From: an uncultured Actinomycetota bacterium
GTDB taxonomy: Bacteria; Actinomycetota; Actinomycetes; JAHEKZ01
NCBI GenBank assembly: GCA_963848085.1
Contig: CAWKCE010000005.1
Coordinates: forward strand, 559,667 to 623,666
Length of the DNA: 64,000 nt
Reading direction: 5' to 3'
Shown here piece after piece: positions 932-27,670 of this stretch (the stretch's first letter is position 1; each line of letters opens with the position of its first letter). The notes under the pieces were generated by a model. It searched no databases. It saw only the letters and a program-made list of their open reading frames with translations, and had not been told where the DNA came from. Both the position numbers and the translations under genes were made by a program.

Positions 932-2104
932 TTACCCGCCAAGAGAGCCATCAGTGACGGGAAGAACCCGGACGACGATCTGAGGGTCTGACTGCGAGGT
1001 TGTCGCGAGCCGGATCGTGCGTGTCCCGCGATCGACGACGTCCCAGTCCGGAAGTTGCGACCGAAGAAACGCCCCGGCCCCAGCAAGACTTTCTTCGTCT
1101 GAAACACCGACCAGCACAGAGCCGTCCGCGGGGTTGCTGCCCAACACAGTGAACTCAATTGAACTGTCGAGACCTTGAACCAGCTGCTCGATCTGCCTCC
1201 TCAGGACCATGACAGCCTGCGCCGTAACCGCGCGAGGGGCGACCACCACAGGAGCTGGACCACTCAACTGCTCTCCGAGACGTTGCGCTTCATCCGGCTT
1301 CAGATCAAGCACGCCGACGATGTAGGCGGTGTGGTCAGCGTTGATGCTGACATCGACGTAGCGGTCACCAAGCAGCGCCTTTGCTCTGCTCACCACCGCC
1401 GACGGGTTCTCAACATCCTCAACAAGGCCAGCGCTCCGCGCCGAGATGTAGACCGCCACAACTTTGCCTTTGGACAGCAGCGACAACTTGGCCGACTCGC
1501 CAACCTGGGATGCGATTCGTGCCTGGTCGGCTGCGCCAATCGCCTTGACATTCAGGGCGTGGTCGGTCTGCCCAGGAATGCTGAAACAGCCGACCAAGGT
1601 CGTACCTGCCTGGCCAGTGCTGAGTTGGGAGGAAGAGACCGAAATCCGACCTGATGTTGTGTTACACCCATCATCCGTCATCCACCACCAACCAGCGTCA
1701 AGCTCGCTGAACACCACGTCCACGGGGTGGCTAAGAGGGCCCTGAGGCTGGGTGATTGGTTCTCCAAACAGTGACTCAGCCCGCCACTTGCCTTCCAGCT
1801 GCGCCACGTCGGTCACCGCCTGCCAGTCTTGACCCTCTCCCGACGTCTGCTCTCCACTTGACGGTGTCGCTGATGGTGAACCAGCAACAACGGGTGGGGG
1901 AGATTCGTGCTGGTAGGGCAGCGCTGCCACCCCCACGACGACCGCTGCTGTTGCCGCCACGGCTGCGGGCACAACTGCCCATTGCCACCGCCGCGAAGTC
2001 TTTGCCACCGGGTCGGCGAGATACTCCGACAACGGCTTAGCTGAGGGCGCCCGCGTCCGCATGTCGTGGAACAGCTCACGCAACTCGCTCTCGAGGTCGC
2101 TCAC
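932..2104 (-). CDS. membrane-anchored anti-sigma factor (short cytoplasmic N-terminus, one TM, about 300-aa extracytoplasmic domain)
   Basis: GTGA start/stop overlap with upstream ECF sigma gene; N-terminal 'ELRELFHDMRTRAPS' then TM 'WQWAVVPAAVAATAAVVVGVAALPY'; typical sigma/anti-sigma operon architecture. Confidence 0.55.
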   Translation of the reverse strand: MSDLESELRELFHDMRTRAPSAKPLSEYLADPVAKTSRRWQWAVVPAAVAATAAVVVGVAALPYQHESPPPVVAGSPSATPSSGEQTSGEGQDWQAVTDVAQLEGKWRAESLFGEPITQPQGPLSHPVDVVFSELDAGWWWMTDDGCNTTSGRISVSSSQLSTGQAGTTLVGCFSIPGQTDHALNVKAIGAADQARIASQVGESAKLSLLSKGKVVAVYISARSAGLVEDVENPSAVVSRAKALLGDRYVDVSINADHTAYIVGVLDLKPDEAQRLGEQLSGPAPVVVAPRAVTAQAVMVLRRQIEQLVQGLDSSIEFTVLGSNPADGSVLVGVSDEESLAGAGAFLRSQLPDWDVVDRGTRTIRLATTSQSDPQIVVRVLPVTDGSLGG

Positions 2105-2613
2105 GACGACACCTCCTCACTCACCTCGAGGGACCGGCGCAGCCTCGCCAGCGCCTTCGAGGCGTTCGCACGCACCGTCGAGGCGCGGCAACCCAACACC
2201 TCGGCTGCCTGCGAGTACGACATGTCCTCGTAGTACCGCAACACCACAGCAGCCCGCTCTGACGGTGACAAAACCGCAAGCAGCGACCACAGCCGGTCAC
2301 GGTCCACTACTTGGTTCTCAAACGACCCACCCGCCGGTTGTTCCACCAGCTCAGCCAGCTCGGCGACCGGGATCTCTGAGGAGACCCGACGTTTAGCGTT
2401 GCGGGTGTACTCGTTGACCATCACCCGCTTGGCGTACGTCACCGGGGAGTCGGCCCTGGCGACCTTTGCCCAGTGCCGGTGAAGCTTCACACATGTGTCT
2501 TGCATCAAGTCCTGAGCAGAGTTGGCAGATCCCGACAGCATGAAGGCAAGCCGAAGCAACGCAGCACCGTGCGCCGCCACCAGCTCCTCCAACGACTCCA
2601 CTCTCACCTCCAC
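2101..2613 (-). CDS. ECF (sigma-70 family group IV) RNA polymerase sigma factor
   Basis: 170 aa; region 2 'AQDLMQDTCVKLHRHW', region 4 HTH 'VLRYYEDMSYSQAAEVLGCRASTVRANASKALARLR'. Confidence 0.8.
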   Translation of the reverse strand: MEVRVESLEELVAAHGAALLRLAFMLSGSANSAQDLMQDTCVKLHRHWAKVARADSPVTYAKRVMVNEYTRNAKRRVSSEIPVAELAELVEQPAGGSFENQVVDRDRLWSLLAVLSPSERAAVVLRYYEDMSYSQAAEVLGCRASTVRANASKALARLRRSLEVSEEVSS

Positions 2614-3000
2614 CTATCAAGACACCCTCAGAGCCCCGAAACGCTGCCACCTCCCATGGTCTTAGGTCCCTCATCACTGGGACGTGGCAATCAGGGCTAT
2701 CCGGACTTGTTTCCAAATCTCCTATCAAGCACTGTGACAGCGCGTACGCACCCGGTGGTCCCCCATCTGACGAGGATCGTCCGTGGAGTGGTGGGGTCTG
2801 AGGTTCGGCGAGGCTGCGTGACGCAGGCGCCATCGACGGAGATCTTCGGTTGGAACATCCAAGTCACGAATCGTAACGAGCTCCACCGCTACAACCGTTG
2901 CGCTTCGCCCGAGAAGCACTGGAGCTTTCAGCGCAGTTAAGGCAGCGGAGAAGACCGAGGGCAGCAAGGGCCGCCCCATCTCGGCGCCCGATGCAACCCC

Positions 3001-3012
3001 TATCTATAGATA
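3001..3012. promoter_or_regulatory. 12-bp perfect AT-rich palindrome TATCTATAGATA downstream of xis-like gene (candidate operator / recombination-directionality or oriT-associated site)
   Basis: Perfect palindrome in an otherwise 70% GC context, inside the lower-GC regulatory region of the element. Confidence 0.3.
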
Positions 3013-3071
3013 CCAGTGTGTACTTCGGGCTGGGGGTCTTTCGCGGTGTTGACGGAAGCCGATCGACCTGA

Positions 3072-3292
3072 CTACGCGGACTCGGCAGCGAGCTGCTCGA
3101 GGTGGGCGACGTAGGCGAGCAGGCTCGTGTAGGGGATGCGGCGTGATCGCCCGAGGGTGACCGATCGGAGTCTCTGTCGCGGATCAGTGCGTACACGTAG
3201 GTCCGCCCCACCCCGAGCGCGTCAGCGGCCTGCTCGGGGGTGAGCAGCAGCGGCGGTACCGCGCTTGTGTGTGACCGGTCTGACGGGTGCAT
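3072..3292 (-). pseudogene. xis: excisionase-like MerR/HTH_17 DNA-binding protein (Xis), apparent -1 frameshift about 3166-3185
   Basis: N-terminal frame gives 'LLTPEQAADALGVGRTYVYALIRDRDSD'; conserved C-terminus 'RSVTLGRSRRIPYTSLLAYVAHLEQLAAESA*' is only obtained in a shifted frame (stop at 3072-3074); strong RBS AAGGAGG before ATG 3292. Confidence 0.6.
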
Positions 3293-3623: not shown

Positions 3624-6506
3624 GTGCTGTCAATCGGACTGGTGACCTCGGGTCACGCGGCGGTCGAGTACTTCGTGCGGCAGACCGCTGGCTGTGACGC
3701 TGACTACTACACCCGGCCCGGACAAGCCACGGGACGTTGGGTTGGCGCGGGCGCCCGCATGCTCGGGCTGACTGGTGACCTCACGTCCGACGGCGAACCG
3801 GTCCTTCGCGGTCTGCTCGACGGTCACGGGCCGGACGGCGTCAGGCTTGTTCCGGCGGTGCTTCGCGGTGACCCCCGCGCTCGGCTGCCGGTAGCACCGC
3901 TGGTGGAGGCGGCGCGTGATGCGGCAGTCGAAGCGGGTTTGCCGATCGCTCTGCTACTGGACGACCACCGGCTGACCAAGCAGTTCACCTCGATGGCCAA
4001 GGGTCTGACCGGGGGCGAGGTCGTTCGGACTCGCGGGGTTCGGGTCGACGTCGCGGTGGCGATCGCCGAGGCGGCCGGCTTAAATGTGCAGTCGGTCTAC
4101 GAACCTGATTCACCCGACGGTCACGACCTGGTTGCGGAGGCGCTCAACCACGTCGGGGAGCGCATCGACATCCGTCGGGCGGGCCTCGACCTGACGTTCT
4201 CGGCGCCCAAGTCCGTGTCGGTCCTGATGGCCTTCGCCACGCCGGACGATGCCGATCAGGTTCGTGCTGCCCACGCGGCGGCCGTGGACGACGCCATGGC
4301 CTGGTTGGAGCGCACCACCGCGTTCGTCGCCCGCGGGCATCACGGCGATGGGCAGCGAGCGGAACGGCTCTCATCTGACGGGTTCATCGGGGTGGCTTTC
4401 GAGCACGTGAGTAGCCGCGCCGGTGACCCCCAGCTGCACACCCATGTGGTGATCGCGAACCTGCTCCGCGGGATCGACGGTCGCTGGTCGGCGGCGGACA
4501 GCAAAGCTCTGCATCGGCACGGGAAGACCGCCGGCTACCTGTATCAGGCTGTCTTGCGTGCCGAGCTCACGAAGAGGTTGGGGGTGGGCTGGGGCGAGGT
4601 GGGCAAGGGGACCGCGGAGATCGCCGGCATTCCCCGATCGCTGCGCAGAGTGTTCTCCAAGCGAGCTGAGCAGATCGCGTCCACGCTTCGCACCTCTTGG
4701 ACTGCGGGAGCCAAGGCTGCGCAGCGCGCCTGCCTGTCCACGCGCCCCAGCAAAGACCGGGCTGTCACGGTTCAGGACCTGCGCGATCGCTGGACGGTGG
4801 AGGCTGTGTCGACGGGTCACGACCCCGACCGCATCGTTGCTGAAGCTCTGGGCCAGGAACATCCCGTTAGCCGCGTCGACGTCATCGACATCAGCGATCA
4901 CTTGCTCGGGCCTGAGGGTCTGACTCGGCAGGCGACGACGTTTGACCGGAACGACCTTCTTCAGGCGATCGCAGCGGCGCTGCCCGTTGGGACCGAAGTG
5001 GACGTCGCGGGCATCGAGGCGCTCGCCAACGCAGTCCTGCGCGATCCTCGAGTGGTCCACACCTCCCCTACCGATGGAACCGGTGAGGCTCACGAGTGGT
5101 CCCCCCGCTGGACGACCACCGAGCTGTTGGCCATCGAGCAGCACGCCCTCGATCTCGCCGAGTCGCTGCGGTCTCGTCCAGTCGATGCTGCACCACGAGG
5201 GCTGGTGGAGTGGGCTATCGGCCAACGCAATCTCGGTGGCGACCAAGCCGCGATGGTCCGCGCCCTGACCTCTGCACCGCAGTTGCTGCACGTGGTGGTC
5301 GGCCCCGCCGGGTCAGGCAAGACCGCGGCGCTCGCCGCGGCGGCGACCGTGTGGCAGCTCAACCACCGCAAGATCATGGGGGCGTCGCTGTCCGCGCTCG
5401 CCACCCGGCAGCTCGCCCGCGGCGCGGACATCCAAGCCATCACCGTCGCGCGGCTGCTGTCACGGCTAGACGCCAGCGCCCGGTCTGGCGCCGGTCCACT
5501 GACCGATCAGTGGGTGCTGGTGATCGACGAGGCCGGCATGGTCGGCACCCGTGATCTGGCCCGACTACTTGGTCACGCTGAGGCGGCTGGTGCCAGCATT
5601 GTGCTGGTCGGCGACCCGGCCCAGCTCCCCGAGATCGAGGCCGGCGGTCTGTTCGCCGCCCTGGCATCGGACGCGAGCGCCGAGCTCCACGACAACCACC
5701 GGCAGAGTGAGGCGTGGGAGCAGCAGGCACTGACCCGGCTTCGAAACGGGCACGTTGACCGGGCCTTGGACGCCTACCTAGCTCACGACCGCGTTCACAT
5801 CGGCACCGATGCCGAGTCTCTGCGCAACCGTGTCGTCGCTGACTACGTGCGAGCCGCCGGGGAAAGCGACCACCCCGACAGCGTCGCGATCCTCGCCGCG
5901 ACCCGCCACCAGGTACGGACGTACAACGACGCAGTCCGAGAACTACTCGATGGCGAAGGACTCCTGTCCGGGCCGGAACTCACCATCCCAACCGATGACG
6001 GCGACCTGCGACTGCGCGCCGGGGACCGCGTCCTGATCACCCGCAACGACTACGACCGCGATCTACTCAACGGTGACCGTGCCGTCGTCGCGCACGTGAG
6101 TGCCGAGACCGGATCGCTAACGCTGGCGACTCCCGACGGAACCATCCACGACCTACCCCATAGTTGGCTCGACGACGGCCGACTCGACCACGCCTACGCG
6201 ATCACCTGCCACAAAGCCCAAGGGCAGACCCTCGACGAAACCCTCGTCGCTGACTCCGCTGCCTTGACCTGCGAAACGGCGTACGTCGCACTCTCACGCG
6301 GTCGAAGCACCAACCACCTGTACCTCGCCCCCGAGCCAGGACGTGACGACCCAGCACAGGAATGGCTCACCGACACCGTCCTGACCGACGTCAGCCGACG
6401 CCTGCGCACCAGCCGACGCCACGTCATGGCCGTCGACCAGGTCGGACCAAGTCGAGCCATCGGTATCGGCGACTCGGCTCCGAGCCGCGAGGCGGTGGCC
6501 CTGTGA
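3624..6506 (+). CDS. MobF-family conjugative relaxase with C-terminal RecD-like helicase (TrwC/TraA type)
   Basis: 960 aa; N-terminal relaxase with Tyr-rich start and histidine triad 'DPQLHTHVVIANL'; C-terminal P-loop 'GPAGSGKT', 'VLVGDPAQLPEI', 'AITCHKAQGQTLDE...YVALSRGRSTNHLYL'. Confidence 0.85.
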   Translation: MLSIGLVTSGHAAVEYFVRQTAGCDADYYTRPGQATGRWVGAGARMLGLTGDLTSDGEPVLRGLLDGHGPDGVRLVPAVLRGDPRARLPVAPLVEAARDAAVEAGLPIALLLDDHRLTKQFTSMAKGLTGGEVVRTRGVRVDVAVAIAEAAGLNVQSVYEPDSPDGHDLVAEALNHVGERIDIRRAGLDLTFSAPKSVSVLMAFATPDDADQVRAAHAAAVDDAMAWLERTTAFVARGHHGDGQRAERLSSDGFIGVAFEHVSSRAGDPQLHTHVVIANLLRGIDGRWSAADSKALHRHGKTAGYLYQAVLRAELTKRLGVGWGEVGKGTAEIAGIPRSLRRVFSKRAEQIASTLRTSWTAGAKAAQRACLSTRPSKDRAVTVQDLRDRWTVEAVSTGHDPDRIVAEALGQEHPVSRVDVIDISDHLLGPEGLTRQATTFDRNDLLQAIAAALPVGTEVDVAGIEALANAVLRDPRVVHTSPTDGTGEAHEWSPRWTTTELLAIEQHALDLAESLRSRPVDAAPRGLVEWAIGQRNLGGDQAAMVRALTSAPQLLHVVVGPAGSGKTAALAAAATVWQLNHRKIMGASLSALATRQLARGADIQAITVARLLSRLDASARSGAGPLTDQWVLVIDEAGMVGTRDLARLLGHAEAAGASIVLVGDPAQLPEIEAGGLFAALASDASAELHDNHRQSEAWEQQALTRLRNGHVDRALDAYLAHDRVHIGTDAESLRNRVVADYVRAAGESDHPDSVAILAATRHQVRTYNDAVRELLDGEGLLSGPELTIPTDDGDLRLRAGDRVLITRNDYDRDLLNGDRAVVAHVSAETGSLTLATPDGTIHDLPHSWLDDGRLDHAYAITCHKAQGQTLDETLVADSAALTCETAYVALSRGRSTNHLYLAPEPGRDDPAQEWLTDTVLTDVSRRLRTSRRHVMAVDQVGPSRAIGIGDSAPSREAVAL

Positions 6507-6595: not shown

Positions 6596-7801
6596 ATGGG
6601 TAAACGTGGCCATGGTGAGGGCGCGGTGTACCGCCGCCGCGGCCGATGGGCCGGTGCCATCACCGTCGACATCGCTTCAGACGGCACGCAGCGGCGCCGC
6701 TACGTGTCCGGCGACACCCGTCGTGAGGTCCTGGCTCGATTGGACGAGCTGCGGCGGCAACGCGACACCGGCCGGCTGGTTGCCACCACACGCGGCCTGA
6801 CCGTCGCGGAGTACTTCAGTGAATGGGCGACCGGAACGATTGCGCACCAGGTGGCGATCGGCGAGCTTCGCGAGTCAACCGCAGACAACTACCTCGACCT
6901 CGCGGACCGAATGATCGTCCCGTACCTGGGACGCCACAGGCTGGAGGAGCTCAAGCCCGTTCATCTGAGGGAGTGGCTCGCGAAGCTTCGTCGCACGACG
7001 AACGCGCGCGGCCGCCCTTACTCGTCGCGAACCGTCCAGTTGGTCCATGCCATCCTGCGCCGCGCCCTCAACGATGCGCTGCGCGACGAAGTCGTCACCC
7101 GCAACGTCGCACTGTTGGTTAAGGCTGGCCGCGTCACATCTCCGACGGTTGAGCCGCTGCAACCCGACGAGCTTCAGCTGCTGCTGGTCGAAGCCGCATC
7201 CGACCGGCTGTATGCGCTGTGGCTGCTCTTCATCGCGCTCGGTCTTCGCCGCGGCGAGGCTCTCGGGCTGCACTGGGACGACATCGACCTCGAAGCCCGC
7301 ACGCTCATCGTTCGAAGATCGCTTCAACGGCGCCGTACCAACGAGCTGACACCCAGTGGTCGACGACGCGGTCATCTCGGTGAGGTCGAAACCAAGACAG
7401 AGGCCAGCGTTCGAACGATCGCACTGCCCAACGTCGTGGTCGACGCGCTGAGCCAGCACCGCTGCGCCCAAGAGATTGAAGCGGCTGACGCCACAGTGTG
7501 GGTCAACCCGAACCTGGTCTTCACAACCCACGTCGGCACCTGGCTTGACCCCCGCAATGTGTACAGCTACTGGCACGCCCTCTGTGACCGAGCCAAAGTC
7601 CGACGGTGCCGACCACACGACCTACGACACACCGCTGCCTCAGTTCTGCTTCTGCAGGGGACCGACATGCGGACTGTCATGGAGATCCTCGGCCACTCCC
7701 GCATGGCCACCACATCTGACCTCTACACCCACGTCCTGGCCGAAGTGAAGGCCGACGCCGCAGCACGCATGGACACATTCTTAAGGGGGCTGCAGCAGTG
7801 A
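6596..7801 (+). CDS. int: tyrosine site-specific integrase (phage integrase family)
   Basis: 401 aa; C-terminal catalytic region '[39 protein letters not shown]' (R..H..R..Y), N-terminal SAM-like/arm-binding region. Confidence 0.9.
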
Positions 7802-7907
7802 CACCGGTCGAGCCATCCGCATGCGCTGCCCGCAGGGGCGCCATTGGGACCGGCAACGACCCACTCGATGGGATCGACTGTCTGTCCCTATCCCTAGAGT
7901 TCGTGGC

Positions 7908-8750
7908 ATGAACCCGGTCGAGCCTGTCATTGACGTGTCCGGATGGGCACCCGACGACGAAGAACCGCTCGGCGCACGCGACAAGTTCTGGATCCGTGAG
8001 AGCACCGACCCCGAAGCAACCTGGTGGCTGTTCAAGCGGCCGCGAGCAATAGGACTGCCCGAACTCGGCGCAGACCTGTGGGCGGAGGTACTGGCAAGCC
8101 GGATCGCTGAGCTGCTTCCACTGCCAGCGGCGGAGGCACGCTTCGCTCTCTGGCAGGGCCAGCCAGGGGTGATCAGCAAGCGAGTGGGCGATGGCCTGGT
8201 CCACGGGAACGAGCTCCTGTCATCCCGCAACCCTGGTTACCGCACAGCGCAGGTCGGCCCGGTGCCCGGATATGACCTTGACGCAATTGCCGTCGCTCTT
8301 GACGGCTATGCCGGCAGTGAGACGGGGCTGTCCGCCTTTGAGTCCTTCACGGGATACCTGACCTTCGACGCACTTGTCGGCAACACCGACCGCCACCACG
8401 AGAACTGGGCCGTGCTCACCGGCAGCCAATCGTTGGCGCCGACGTACGATCACGGCGCCTCACTGGGCTTCAACGCCCCAACAGCTCGCCGCGTCGACCC
8501 GGAGGCCTTCGCTGAGCGAGGCCGCGCCCGTCACTTCCCAGGTGGCCCTCGACTCAGCGACCTCGCGCACCAGGCCCTCGGCAGGGTGGACGATTCAGTC
8601 CGAGCCCTGTGGCTCGACAGGGTGAGCGCCCTTGACGCAGGAATGATCCGAGACGCCATTTCGGCGGTTCCCGGTGGCTGGATGTCGGACGGAGCGCGTA
8701 CGTTTGTGGACAACTTCATCGCAACGAACCAGAGGAGGCTGACCCCATGA
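7908..8750 (+). CDS. HipA-family Ser/Thr protein kinase, minimal form lacking N-subdomain 1 (HipT-like toxin candidate)
   Basis: ATG 7908 (track ORF 7821..8750); motifs 'LGARDKFWIRE' (Gly-rich loop), 'GNTDRHHENWAVL' (catalytic DxHxxN), 'LAPTYDHGASLGF' (HipA FYDI-like Mg-binding Asp). Confidence 0.7.
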   Translation: MNPVEPVIDVSGWAPDDEEPLGARDKFWIRESTDPEATWWLFKRPRAIGLPELGADLWAEVLASRIAELLPLPAAEARFALWQGQPGVISKRVGDGLVHGNELLSSRNPGYRTAQVGPVPGYDLDAIAVALDGYAGSETGLSAFESFTGYLTFDALVGNTDRHHENWAVLTGSQSLAPTYDHGASLGFNAPTARRVDPEAFAERGRARHFPGGPRLSDLAHQALGRVDDSVRALWLDRVSALDAGMIRDAISAVPGGWMSDGARTFVDNFIATNQRRLTP

Positions 8751-9520
8751 CCGTTGACGCACTCTCGACGCGGCCTGCCCGGGTGGCCACTCCGAACCGG
8801 TTCCTTGTCTTGTGGCAGTCACCCAGCGACCGTTCCTATCACCGGGTCGGCACCCTCGAGCGTGACACCGAGGGCTACACATTCCACTACTTGCCCGGAG
8901 CCCAGGGCACCTCCGGCTTCGAGGCGTTCGCCGGCTTCCCCGACCCCGACGTCGAGTACCGATCCGAAGAGCTGTTCCCAATGTTCGCCAACCGAGTCAT
9001 GACCCCGAGACGGGACAACTACGACGCCTACGTCCAGTCACTGGGGCTGAGTGACGCCAGGCCCGAACCATTCGAGGTCCTAGCGCGAACCCTCGGCACC
9101 CGAGCCACCGACCTCGTCCAGCTGCTTCCAGTCCCCACCATCGACGCGCAAGGTTTGCTGTCCTTCTACTTCCTCGTCCACGGCAGCCGGCACGTGGACG
9201 CTGAAGCCGAGCGACTGGGCCGTTTGCAGCCCGGCGACGACCTCTACTTGGCCCCTGAGGACGACAACGAGGTCAGCCCGGTCGCGGTCCTTGTCGACAG
9301 CCAGCCGCAACCGACCCGCGACCGCGCCCTGGGGTACGTCCCGGACGTACTGGCACCCCTCGTCCGCGCACTGCTCGCCAGCGGAACCACACTCCGAGTT
9401 GTTGCCGAGCAGGTCAACCTGCCCACTGCCGGGCACGTCTCCGACCACATGAGACTCCTGGCCAGGATCGACGCCATCGCACCCGACGGCTTCGACGTAG
9501 ACGCGGCGCTGTCTTCCTGA
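8747..9520 (+). CDS. HipA N-subdomain-1-like (HipS-like) domain fused to a HIRAN-like C-terminal domain; candidate partner/antitoxin of upstream kinase
   Basis: ATGA overlap with kinase stop; N-half 'FLVLWQSPSDRSYHRVGTL...TFHYLPG...LFPMFANRVMTPRRDNYDAYVQSLGLSD...FEVLARTLGTRATDLVQLLP' parallels HipA residues 1-110; C-half 'LQPGDDLYLAPEDDNEVSPVAVLV...ALGYVPDVLAPLVRALLASGTTLRVV' fits the HIRAN consensus; homology judged by eye only. Confidence 0.45.
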   Translation: MTVDALSTRPARVATPNRFLVLWQSPSDRSYHRVGTLERDTEGYTFHYLPGAQGTSGFEAFAGFPDPDVEYRSEELFPMFANRVMTPRRDNYDAYVQSLGLSDARPEPFEVLARTLGTRATDLVQLLPVPTIDAQGLLSFYFLVHGSRHVDAEAERLGRLQPGDDLYLAPEDDNEVSPVAVLVDSQPQPTRDRALGYVPDVLAPLVRALLASGTTLRVVAEQVNLPTAGHVSDHMRLLARIDAIAPDGFDVDAALSS

Positions 9521-9540
9521 TTTCGCGACGTTCCCGCACC

Positions 9541-9563
9541 GCATAGCTGCCCGCATAGCTGCC
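9541..9563. repeat. Tandem 12-bp repeat GCATAGCTGCC(C) x2 about 70 bp from the tRNA-proximal att repeat (arm-type site candidate)
   Basis: gcatagctgccc gcatagctgcc read directly; matches left-end repeat core. Confidence 0.55.
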
Positions 9564-9634
9564 AGAGCCTCAAAACGACCAAGAGCCGATCCCTCGTGAA
9601 CGAGAAAATCGGCTCTGACCTGCGATGACGTGTG

Positions 9635-9707
9635 CGCGCCCGGAGAGACTCGAACTCCCAACCTTCTGATCCGTAGTCAGATGCTCTATCCGTTGAGCTA
9701 CGGGCGC
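9635..9707 (-). tRNA. tRNA-Arg (anticodon ACG)
   Basis: Cloverleaf: acceptor GCGCCCG/CGGGCGC, D-arm GCTCAACGGATAGAGC, anticodon arm TCTGA-CTACGGA-TCAGA, T-arm GGGAG-TTCGAGT-CTCTC, discriminator G, no encoded CCA. Confidence 0.85.
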
Positions 9708-9791
9708 CCGGCCGCATGCGACCGCCGATCACCATACCGGCCACGTCGTGACGGGCCGAAATCCGTGGGACCGACTCGACGAAGGAAGGAC

Positions 9792-10155
9792 CTAGCCCCG
9801 CGCCGAGTCGAACTCGGCGACCAGCCGCTTCGGCGCGACGGAGCGCCAGGCGTCCTGCACGAGCTCCTCGACCTGGTCGGCAGGTGCCCGGGCAAGGGTC
9901 ACTTCCACCCAGCCATAGCGCCCCACGTGGGCCGCCACGCCGTACGCCTCCGGCGACTCTGCGATGAGGGCTGCCTGCTCCTCCTTCGTCGACTTCACCG
10001 TTGCGCTGGCACCGTCCTCGGCGAGAATCACGAAGATCTTGGACCGCACCCGGAACGTGGGATGGACGTCCCACGTGATCTGTTCGGTGGCGTCTGGCAG
10101 GGCGAGCGCCGCCTGGCGGACATGGTCTGCCGAACTGGGACGAGGCGAACTCACG
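9792..10155 (-). CDS. MmcQ/YjbR-family DNA-binding protein
   Basis: C-terminal 110 aa 'ITWDVHPTFRVRSKIFVIL...GRYGWVEVTL' typical of the YjbR fold; GTG start at 10153-10155 chosen because the track ORF runs through tRNA-Ser upstream. Confidence 0.5.
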
Positions 10156-10223
10156 ACCTCGACCCTAGGACGATCCCGGCCCCAGGGACGACGAAAGCCC
10201 CGGCGAGCCGGGGCTTTCGAGCG

Positions 10224-10314
10224 CGGAGGCGGCGGGATTTGAACCCGCGAGGGGTTTTGAGACCCCAACCCGCTTAGCAGGCGGGCGCCATCGGCCGGAC
10301 TAGGCGACGCCTCC
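10224..10314 (-). tRNA. tRNA-Ser (anticodon GCT)
   Basis: Acceptor GGAGGCG/CGCCTCC, anticodon loop CTGCTAA, long variable arm, T-arm GCGGG-TTCAAAT-CCCGC. Confidence 0.8.
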
Positions 10315-27582: not shown

Positions 27583-27585
27583 CGG

Positions 27586-27670
27586 CGGAGGGTGAGGGAT
27601 TTGAACCCCCGGACGCTTGCGCGTCTCCCGCTTTCAAGGCGGGTGCATTCGGCCGCTCTGCCAACCCTCC
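27586..27670 (-). tRNA. tRNA-Ser (anticodon TGA)
   Basis: Acceptor GGAGGGT/ACCCTCC, anticodon loop CTTGAAA, long variable arm, T-loop TTCAAAT. Confidence 0.8.

Follow-up and report, generated by a model that had tools for sequence, protein, structure and literature searches.

Two overlapping genes, encoding a minimal HipA-family kinase and a two-domain partner, lie between an integrase gene and a tRNA gene in a 64,000-nucleotide stretch of DNA from an uncultured Actinomycetota bacterium (the window). We asked to what family this pair belongs and what it might do for its carrier. The original prediction had taken it for a candidate novel system, in which a HIRAN-bearing antitoxin could couple release of the kinase to DNA ends.

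The locus and its family

The following features of the window define the locus:

559–602, no strand assigned: distal att copy, a 44-nt perfect direct repeat of the 3' part of tRNA-Arg
3624–6506, plus strand: TrwC-type relaxase with helicase domain (Pfam TrwC, 6.7e-73; AAA_30, 1.3e-50)
6596–7801, plus strand: tyrosine integrase of the host element (Pfam Phage_integrase, 7e-24)
7802–7907, plus strand: spacer between int and hipI, 106 nt, the presumed site of the hipIN promoter and ribosome-binding site
7908–8750, plus strand: hipI, encoding a core Ser/Thr kinase of the HipA family (280 aa, no N-subdomain 1; putative toxin)
8747–9520, plus strand: hipN, a 257-aa two-domain partner, putative antitoxin/sensor
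9634–9707, minus strand: tRNA-Arg(ACG), the 3' 44 nt of which (9634–9677) are the tRNA-proximal att copy

The repeats at 559–602 and 9634–9677 are identical over all 44 nt and bound an element of about 9.07 kb that is integrated in tRNA-Arg; as it carries a TrwC-type relaxase, the element is mobilisable. The module has the integrase on one side and the tRNA-proximal att copy on the other, with tRNA-Arg 113 nt downstream, and hipIN is cargo of this ~9-kb integrative mobilisable element, as had been proposed. Both open reading frames were found as listed, and the predicted kinase-first order, the 106-nt distance to int and the ATGA overlap (hipI stop TGA at 8748–8750, hipN ATG at 8747–8749) hold. 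There is no HTH gene between int and hipI or after hipN, in agreement with the proposed lack of HipB. An alternative in-frame ATG at 7821 likewise opens the hipI frame; the start at 7908 was preferred, as the protein has 280 aa in independent gene calls from four other contigs and homologues align at their N-termini with MNPVE. The spacer region shows a mean identity of 98% over 126 nt in five independent copies, and scanning the spacer revealed neither a sigma-70-type consensus match nor an inverted repeat or operator-like palindrome.

From their architecture and from PADLOC profiles, the two genes are a hipIN module (the kinase HipI followed by HipN, a HipS-like domain plus HIRAN), as described by Gerdes, Baerentsen and Brodersen (mBio 2021), who counted 14 such modules among 1,239 (PMC8262856). 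[quoted passage not shown] Both profiles of PDC-M03, a PADLOC-DB v2 candidate for phage defence whose members PMC13245101 names as HipA and HIRAN proteins, are matched end to end by the adjacent genes: HipI matches PDC-M03A at 1.8e-77 (residues 5–279 on profile positions 4–294 of 299) and HipN matches PDC-M03B at 5.1e-71 (residues 17–251 on positions 5–233 of 245). It should be noted that PDC-M03 has candidate status, being defined by its association with defence genes; it has not been validated and has no mechanism attached. The arrangement is thus not novel. Neither is the idea of an antitoxin whose HIRAN couples kinase release to phage DNA ends, which stands as a hypothesis, near-verbatim, in Gerdes et al. 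(PMC8262856). The original prediction was to fall if the arrangement proved to be a described family with known function: the family is described, whereas for its function no experimental study of hipIN was found in the open-access literature.

Several related systems should be considered for comparison. HipBST, known from E. coli O127:H6 and Legionella pneumophila, is tricistronic (hipB-hipS-hipT), with an HTH protein HipB, a free HipS of ~100 aa and the kinase last, whereas the present module has the kinase first, no HipB HTH and the HipS-like domain fused to HIRAN; by analogy it may work as HipS and HipT do, yet it is no member of HipBST. Canonical hipBA, in which a HipA of ~440 aa includes N-subdomain 1 and HipB is encoded upstream, differs from the 280-aa kinase without HipB found here. 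HipL kinases (PMC8262856) share the three modules and their order, in one polypeptide rather than two, and this natural fusion suggests that core kinase, HipS-like domain and HIRAN work together. No true HipL was recovered in the relatives searched, and the matches yielded no usable single-chain fusion of this type: in P0097 (417 aa) a kinase with an internal deletion is joined to HipN and in L013 an N-truncated kinase reads through into HipN, both being degraded fusions, and P0033 and P0047 are start-site miscalls. DS-6/HipAD (PADLOC PDC-M66), a HipA-family kinase with a DUF3037/DUF1829 protein, has been validated as anti-phage, and its defence requires a catalytic residue of the kinase (PMC13092281). 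It likewise consists of two genes, one for a small kinase of the HipA family and one for a partner other than HipB, for which binding to both kinase and DNA is predicted; this partner is unrelated to HipN, and HipI matches PDC-M66A weakly (4.5e-4).

The kinase and its two-domain partner

In the Pfam search of both proteins that had been suggested, all matches exceeded the curated cut-offs. HipI scores 41.1 bits against HipA_C (cut-off 30.5; E 2.1e-10). Against the NCBIfam HipA-family equivalog it reaches only 16.9 bits (cut-off 401). The three motifs from which a minimal HipA-family kinase had been predicted, LGARDKFW (21–28), DRHHENW (161–167) and APTYD (177–181), were located; all core kinase motifs are present, with the Gly-rich loop near the N-terminus and N-subdomain 1 absent.

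7962–7991, plus strand: Gly-rich loop E19-P-L-G22-A-R-D-K26-F-W28, with G22, K26 and W28 invariant or nearly so
8388–8408, plus strand: catalytic motif D161-R-H-H-E-N166-W, which aligns with DRHNGNW of CtkA
8436–8450, plus strand: Mg-binding motif A-P178-T-Y-D181, with P178 and D181 invariant

Among 156 relatives, G22, W28, K43, E60, D154, D161, R162, N166, W167, P178 and D181 are invariant, H163 is kept in all but one (a distant relative with Pro), and E19 is Glu in 144. The predicted structure is confident, with CtkA, HipT and HipA as nearest folds. These intact catalytic residues suggest that HipI is an active HipA-family Ser/Thr kinase. HipI is nearer to CtkA (JHP0940; PDB 3akj) of Helicobacter pylori, with 20% identity, than to HipT. 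Studies of CtkA have treated it as a pro-inflammatory kinase that is secreted and not as the toxin of a toxin-antitoxin system; the idea that CtkA is itself a hipIN kinase was dropped, as the kinase of a Helicobacter MAG (L022) gave no significant single-sequence match to it.

The autophosphorylation sites Ser57 and Ser59 of HipT, which presumably correspond to E19 and L21 of HipI, are absent here. After the glycine of the loop, 52 of 53 close relatives have Ala and 86 of 103 distant ones Ser or Thr. With no Ser or Thr in the Gly-rich loop of this actinobacterial clade, autophosphorylation control of the HipA/HipT type appears unlikely there, and HipN would then be the only brake on HipI in the clade.

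The second gene had been read as a fusion of a HipS-like part to HIRAN, and this was borne out by Pfam, with matches to Couple_hipA (23.8 bits, cut-off 22.5; residues 32–113) and HIRAN (28.4 bits, cut-off 24.7; residues 139–215), and by structure: the AF2 model of HipN (pLDDT 92.3, pTM 0.89), as a prediction, confirms both domain assignments.

8795–9136, plus strand: HipS-like domain, resembling HipA N-subdomain 1 (about residues 17–130)
8984–9013, plus strand: F80-A-N-R83-V-M-T-P-R-R89, the most conserved motif of the HipS-like domain
9149–9481, plus strand: HIRAN domain (about residues 135–245), with the HIRAN beta-barrel fold present
9182–9193, plus strand: HIRAN pocket, G146-S-R148-H149 (profile alignment)
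9266–9286, plus strand: HIRAN pocket, N174-E-V-S177-P-V-A180 (profile alignment)
9332–9343, plus strand: HIRAN pocket, G196-Y197-V-P199 (profile alignment)

The likeness of the N-domain to HipS is marginal in sequence, with Pfam barely over its cut-off and profile E-values against the PDB of 0.007 and 0.3; a profile of the N-domain alone returned only chance myosin matches among PDB sequences. HipS neutralises HipT by a wedge into the cavity of the Gly-rich loop (PMC10627512). Mapping of Glu63 and Trp65 of HipS onto HipN was dropped, as HipS aligns with the full-length profile no further than HipN residue 81, and FANRVMTPRR as the counterpart of the wedge loop is a guess that we do not claim, the N-domain profile having found nothing usable.

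For the HIRAN pocket, HLTF served as the reference, with R71, Y72, N91, Y93, D94 and H110 as what we take to be the 3'-end pocket residues and D94 presumably contacting the 3'-OH. By profile alignment, R148, H149, N174 and Y197 of HipN are conserved at HLTF pocket positions. Across 293 HipN sequences, the positions aligned to R71, Y72, N91 and A97 hold Arg in 245, His or Tyr in 284, Asn in 286 and Ala in 284, and those aligned to G109-H110 hold Gly in 289 and Tyr, Trp or Phe in 283. The D94 position is Asp, Asn, Ser or Thr in 288 of the 293; in the profile alignment it is Ser in all 29 close relatives and Asp or Asn in 186 of 213 distant ones, and in this clade the Y93 position is Val and the K113 position Asp. 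Gerdes et al. stated that actinobacterial HipN lacks most of the DNA-contact motifs (PMC8262856). Together with Ser at D94 and Val at Y93, this makes binding of DNA 3' ends less certain in this clade; the most likely ligand of the HipN HIRAN is a nucleic-acid 3' end or something related to it. Unlike HLTF and Rad5, HipN lacks partner domains of the helicase or ubiquitin-ligase type, and compared with lp_0118 (3k2y), a bacterial stand-alone HIRAN-like protein, its HIRAN is fused to the HipS-like domain, against which it packs in the model.

Pairing, decay and genomic neighbourhoods

The two genes are kept together strictly. For intact kinases with at least 780 nt of downstream sequence in metagenome loci, a full HipN lies directly downstream on the same strand in 50 of 52 cases; in the other two HipN is impaired in its HIRAN part only, and none of the 52 lacks the HipS-like domain of the partner. 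The HIRAN domain is apparently dispensable. This pairing is kept down to ~30% kinase identity and across phyla.

Decay runs in one direction. Of 23 genome loci anchored on HipN, three were cut by contig ends and 20 were assessed: the pair with an intact kinase is present in 13 (in L022 the contig ends within hipN), and in five (L002, L003, L013, L015 and L017) hipN is intact but the kinase is truncated or missing. The orphan hipN of L002 has a dN/dS of 0.23. The kinase is disrupted or frameshifted in L024, L029, L075 and L079, with full HipN retained in the last three and the sequence ending inside hipN in L024. The decay is thus asymmetric, the kinase being often lost while hipN is intact, and the reverse was seen in neither the HipN-anchored nor the kinase-anchored loci. 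It should be considered that these are MAG and metagenome assemblies, one sample anchored on HipN and one on the best 80 kinase matches, both with selection biases.

Clustering of the HipN family gives 112 clusters at 90% identity and, with E ≤ 1e-30, 613 at 50%. In a sister element, the slot between int and att is filled by a Fic gene. One relative of the module adjoins SNF2-helicase and DUF1156 genes and another MobC/NikA-like genes, and some copies are found among housekeeping genes. A search of IMG/VR viral contigs returned no relative, and carriage by phages was dropped from consideration; this result and the copies among housekeeping genes speak against the scheme favoured below. In Actinobacteria, diDNase genes adjoin HipA/HIRAN clusters (PMC11706625). 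Such a partner was rejected for this locus, where int lies 106 nt upstream and the tRNA downstream leaves no room, and no diDNase gene was found in the neighbourhoods of the three relatives examined.

Mechanism, alternatives and meaning

Taken together, hipIN is probably, though by no means securely, a translationally coupled pair of kinase toxin and antitoxin/sensor for phage defence and/or stabilisation of the element. If free, HipI would stop growth by phosphorylating some essential component, which by analogy would be an aminoacyl-tRNA synthetase. The HipS-like N-domain of HipN, the fold of which is shown, may restrain HipI by analogy with HipBST, supplying in trans a lid equivalent to N-subdomain 1 of HipA, with which HipS blocks the Gly-rich loop of HipT. 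The HIRAN would be the input module, the ligand of which changes or releases this inhibition, and the payoff would be phage defence of the abortive-infection type and/or post-segregational stabilisation of the element.

A more specific version of this scheme, which we offer tentatively and consider unlikely as a whole, takes HipN for a rigid two-domain switch in which a free nucleic-acid 3' end in the HIRAN pocket would act on the HipS-like lid and free the kinase. In this Ser-for-Asp actinobacterial clade, with a relaxase gene on the element, the ligand might be the 3'-OH of a relaxase nick or of rolling-circle transfer, not necessarily phage DNA, and the module might keep watch over conjugative DNA that enters or competes, or over the transfer state of its own element. 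If true, hipIN would be the first case of a toxin-antitoxin system for which DNA ends are the direct trigger. That HIRAN senses phage DNA ends is already a published hypothesis, to which we add, as our own inferences, a rigid coupling, an altered pocket and a link to conjugation.

The HipS-like fold alone is no proof of inhibition, as the same N-subdomain in HipA belongs to an active toxin. HipN could accordingly be an obligatory activating and targeting subunit, with the HipS-like domain completing the kinase as N-subdomain 1 does within HipA and the HIRAN recruiting the holo-kinase to DNA ends or stalled forks for a DNA-associated substrate; the module would then serve DNA-damage or replication signalling rather than act as poison and antidote. 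We regard this as improbable.

We also think it improbable that hipIN is a plain addiction module acting by post-segregational killing, in which the HIRAN replaces the HTH of HipB for operon autoregulation or DNA tethering and neither foreign-DNA sensing nor phage defence is involved. Its place inside an integrated element, between int and att, and the lack of a HipB-type HTH gene would fit, as would the autoregulation of canonical hipBA through binding of its antitoxin to DNA (PMC13092281). However, characterised HIRAN domains recognise DNA ends and not sequences (PMC8262856), the 106-nt spacer upstream holds no operator-like repeat, the family was picked up through association with defence islands (PADLOC PDC-M03; PMC11706625), and many copies lie outside any recognisable mobile element. 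A third alternative, suggested by the frequent degradation of related copies (L002, L003, L011, L023 and L024), is that a HipA-like system is decaying here or has already lost its function. This is very improbable, as both frames are full length, every family-invariant catalytic and structural residue is present, dN/dS is 0.16 for hipN and 0.21 for hipI, and identical or near-identical copies occur on 11 contigs.

The locus counts for little as a discovery: published work already covers the family, the logic of its domains and the hypothesis that DNA ends are sensed, and annotation tools mark such a pair as a candidate for defence. What this analysis adds is the strict pairing, the asymmetric decay, the Ser-for-Asp pocket and Ser/Thr-less loop of this clade, and the cargo slot between int and att. 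It is of more value as a target: hipIN is widespread (clusters at 50% identity number in the hundreds), and DS-6/HipAD, a system with a related kinase, was recently validated against phages. From the comparative results, residues 1–130 of HipN should suffice to neutralise HipI, and the HIRAN should set the trigger. If the DNA-end-sensing hypothesis is true, hipIN would join a sensor of nucleic-acid ends directly to a kinase that blocks translation.

The gene pair and its mobile element

[quoted passage not shown] All motifs quoted in the original prediction were found where it had placed them, and its two-gene observation was confirmed in every respect (ORFs, overlap, Pfam, PDB profiles and models). 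The hipI ORF has an alternative in-frame ATG at 7821; the start was kept at 7908, as gene callers predict 280 aa on four other contigs with these genes and as, in the alignment of relatives, the homologues' N-termini fall at MNPVE of HipI.

Features of the element
559-602 and 9634-9677: perfect 44-nt direct repeat, duplicating the 3' part of tRNA-Arg
932-2104, minus strand: META-domain protein, 390 aa, overlapping the ECF sigma stop
2101-2613, minus strand: ECF sigma factor
2864-3292, minus strand: HTH_17 excisionase-like protein
3624-6506: TrwC relaxase-helicase
6596-7801: tyrosine integrase, ending 106 nt upstream of hipI
7908-8750, plus strand: hipI ORF, product of 280 aa
8747-9520, plus strand: hipN ORF
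9634-9707, minus strand: tRNA-Arg(ACG)

The pair is located on a mobile element of roughly 9.07 kb bounded by the 44-nt repeat, and no gene lies between hipIN and the tRNA-proximal att copy, in agreement with the predicted place of the pair as cargo between int and att. No mating-pore genes were found on this element, which is thus integrative and mobilisable. That an element this small carries its own ECF sigma factor and a META-domain gene, possibly an anti-sigma or regulated partner of that factor, is unusual. At 9539-9562, some 70-90 nt inward of the tRNA-proximal att copy, the 12-nt sequence CCGCATAGCTGC occurs twice in tandem; a related pair, TGACCGCATAGC / TGTCCCCATAGC, is found at 688-711, similarly far inward of the distal copy and with the orientation unchanged. 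Both pairs could be arm-type binding sites of the integrase. Beside the element, a tRNA-Arg(ACG)/tRNA-Ser(GCT)/tRNA-Ser(TGA) cluster (9634-10314 and 27584-27670) shares synteny with a locus of a Bifidobacteriaceae MAG (L003, 8896-12533), where a 70%-identical hipN lies at the same tRNA-Arg and the kinase is reduced to a C-terminal remnant.

The order relaxase-int-hipIN-tRNA-Arg is common to the window and three relatives' loci (L001, L104 and L106), while L105 has the same pair and spacer, with upstream genes called differently. In another relative's locus, L002, the int-att slot after the integrase of the adjacent element copy holds a Fic-domain gene, and the slot thus takes interchangeable cargo. 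Synonymous divergence between window 6596-9520 and L001 5850-8774 is 0.40 for int and 0.15 for both hipI and hipN, which suggests that sharing or exchange of the hipIN cassette is more recent than that of the neighbouring integrase. Elsewhere, a 65%-identical hipIN (L107, 1551-8273, on the contig of L004) is flanked by a DUF1156 gene and by an SNF2/DEAD helicase of 1,172 aa that has a NOV_C domain, a neighbourhood that resembles a defence island; one further family member adjoins MobC/NikA-like genes and another is found among sugar-metabolism genes. No hipIN relatives were found on viral contigs.

Domain identities and the known family

The folds and domain identities of both proteins are clear. 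The Pfam search proposed with the original prediction placed HipA_C on HipI (residues 22-186, 41.1 bits, cut-off 30.5), and Couple_hipA, the HipA N-terminal or HipS domain (residues 32-113, 23.8 bits, cut-off 22.5), and HIRAN (residues 139-215, 28.4 bits, cut-off 24.7) on HipN. Against PDB chains, a 65-sequence HipI profile matched the H. pylori HipA-like kinase CtkA (7e-20), Legionella HipT (3e-4) and, weakly, HipA, while a 60-sequence HipN profile matched the bacterial HIRAN-like protein 3k2y (1.3e-7), the HIRAN domain of HLTF (about 5e-3) and, marginally, HipS of H. influenzae and E. coli (0.007 and 0.3). AlphaFold models built on the respective alignments are confident for the kinase (pLDDT 95.8, pTM 0.93) as well as for HipN (pLDDT 92.3, pTM 0.89).

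The original prediction, which called the pair a candidate novel system, was correct in its anatomy but not in its claim of novelty: the arrangement is that of the hipIN family defined by Gerdes, Baerentsen and Brodersen (mBio 2021, PMC8262856) and of the PADLOC-DB phage-defence candidate PDC-M03, which both window proteins match end to end (1.8e-77 and 5.1e-71). Gerdes et al. counted hipIN as 14 of 1,239 modules, described HipL, a related single-chain kinase with a HipS-like domain and HIRAN, and had already put forward the prediction's own hypothesis, in which the HIRAN part of the antitoxin ties release of the kinase to phage DNA ends (PMC8262856). HipA/HIRAN clusters adjoining diDNase genes in integrative elements of Actinobacteria are reported by a 2025 NAR paper, where they are cited as HipI with predicted antitoxins. 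The window pair is a new, well-preserved member of this known family. Its validated sister system DS-6/HipAD (PADLOC PDC-M66) protects against phage, and loses this protection when the kinase catalytic residue is mutated (PMC13092281); DS-6/HipAD differs in pairing the HipA-family kinase with a DUF3037/DUF1829 protein.

Kinase core and HIRAN pocket

As read from 156 aligned relatives, the catalytic residues of HipI are intact: G22, W28, K43 (ATP lysine), E60, D154, D161, R162, N166 (in the catalytic motif) and D181 (Mg) are invariant, H163 is so in all but one, and K26 of the Gly-rich loop nearly so (151/156). Both genes are under purifying selection, with dN/dS against the 94%-identical copy in L001 of 0.21 for hipI and 0.16 for hipN. 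Within the Gly-rich loop (HipI residues 19-28, window 7962-7991), G-3, which we take to correspond to the autophosphorylated residues HipA Ser150 and HipT Ser57, is Glu in 144/156 sequences. At G+1, Ala is found in 52/53 close relatives, as against Ser/Thr in 86/103 distant ones, and the six residues on either side of the loop glycine include no Ser/Thr in the window kinase. Gerdes et al. (PMC8262856) proposed that autophosphorylation close to this loop may control most HipI; in the window's clade, such control seems unlikely, which would leave HipN as the sole brake.

HIRAN pocket positions, mapped by profile alignment to HLTF, not by superposed coordinates (HLTF residue; HipN residue; occurrence among 293 HipN sequences)
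R71; R148; R in 245/293
Y72; H149; H or Y in 284/293
N91; N174; N in 286/293
Y93; V176; mostly V or A
D94; S177; D 127, N 97, S 47, T 17
A97; A180; A in 284/293
G109; G196; G in 289/293
H110; Y197; Y, W or F in 283/293

The conserved positions indicate that the pocket is under selection as a ligand site. D94 of HLTF contacts the 3'-OH, and its position is Ser in 29/29 close relatives of the window HipN. Judged by this mapping, the pocket of the window's clade departs from that of the HLTF 3'-end reader. This fits the observation of Gerdes et al. that most DNA-contact motifs are missing from actinobacterial HipN (PMC8262856).

Pairing, decay and function

Searches yielded 112 HipN and 291 kinase clusters at 90% identity. 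Among 1.84 billion representatives, the HipN profile retrieved 1,552 proteins at E<=1e-10 and 613 at E<=1e-30, the latter nearly all of 230-280 aa and aligned end to end. Of 23 HipN-anchored loci from one-genome-per-species contigs, 13 have an intact kinase gene immediately before hipN on the same strand; the contig of one of these, L022, stops within hipN. Contig ends cut three others, with part of the kinase still visible in two; hipN is intact and the kinase truncated or absent in five (L002, L003, L013, L015 and L017), and both genes are decayed in two (L011 and L023). For the kinase-anchored sample, the best 80 were taken from 387 confirmed hits in metagenomes, and these extend to kinases of about 30% identity. 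Among its 52 intact kinases with at least 780 nt downstream, 50 are directly followed by a full-length HipN and two by a HipN impaired in the HIRAN part only (L088 and L103), so that the HipS-like domain is missing in none of the 52. In four further loci the kinase is frameshifted or disrupted by an insertion; three (L029, L075 and L079) keep a full HipN, and in L024 the available sequence ends within hipN.

hipI and hipN thus strictly co-occur: among the loci examined, an intact kinase is never found without a HipS-like partner, and the partner often outlasts the kinase. A harmful kinase with the HipS-like domain as its antidote would be expected to leave such an asymmetry, and the impaired cases suggest that the HIRAN domain is dispensable for neutralisation. 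Because both samples were drawn, with selection biases, from MAG and metagenome assemblies, the pattern should be considered supportive rather than proof. The decay asymmetry and the closer resemblance of HipN to free-standing HipS antitoxins weigh against the main rival, that HipN completes and targets the kinase without inhibiting it.

Several relatives depart from the usual arrangement. In L013 (7302-8729), an N-truncated kinase reads through into HipN as one ORF; a relative's protein, P0097, is a HipN fused to an internally deleted kinase; and the HipN of L088, without most of its HIRAN domain, is like hipJS. In L024 (4715-8035), whose kinase is 98% identical, hipI is interrupted after codon ~238 by an insertion of roughly 3.3 kb that contains a metalloprotease-like ORF and a large serine recombinase. 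In L002 (5235-8774), a 94%-identical relative, an ECF sigma and S26 signal-peptidase block replaces hipI up to its last ~22 codons, and hipN is intact (dN/dS 0.23); as this is a MAG contig, the assembly may be chimeric.

We infer from the family's biology that free HipI would phosphorylate an essential translation factor and arrest growth, that the HIRAN domain would serve as the trigger input, and that the outcome may be abortive infection and/or element addiction. Our search of the open-access literature found no experimental study of hipIN. While the finding by itself is unsurprising to specialists, its residual value is that of a target in a family experimentally uncharacterised so far.
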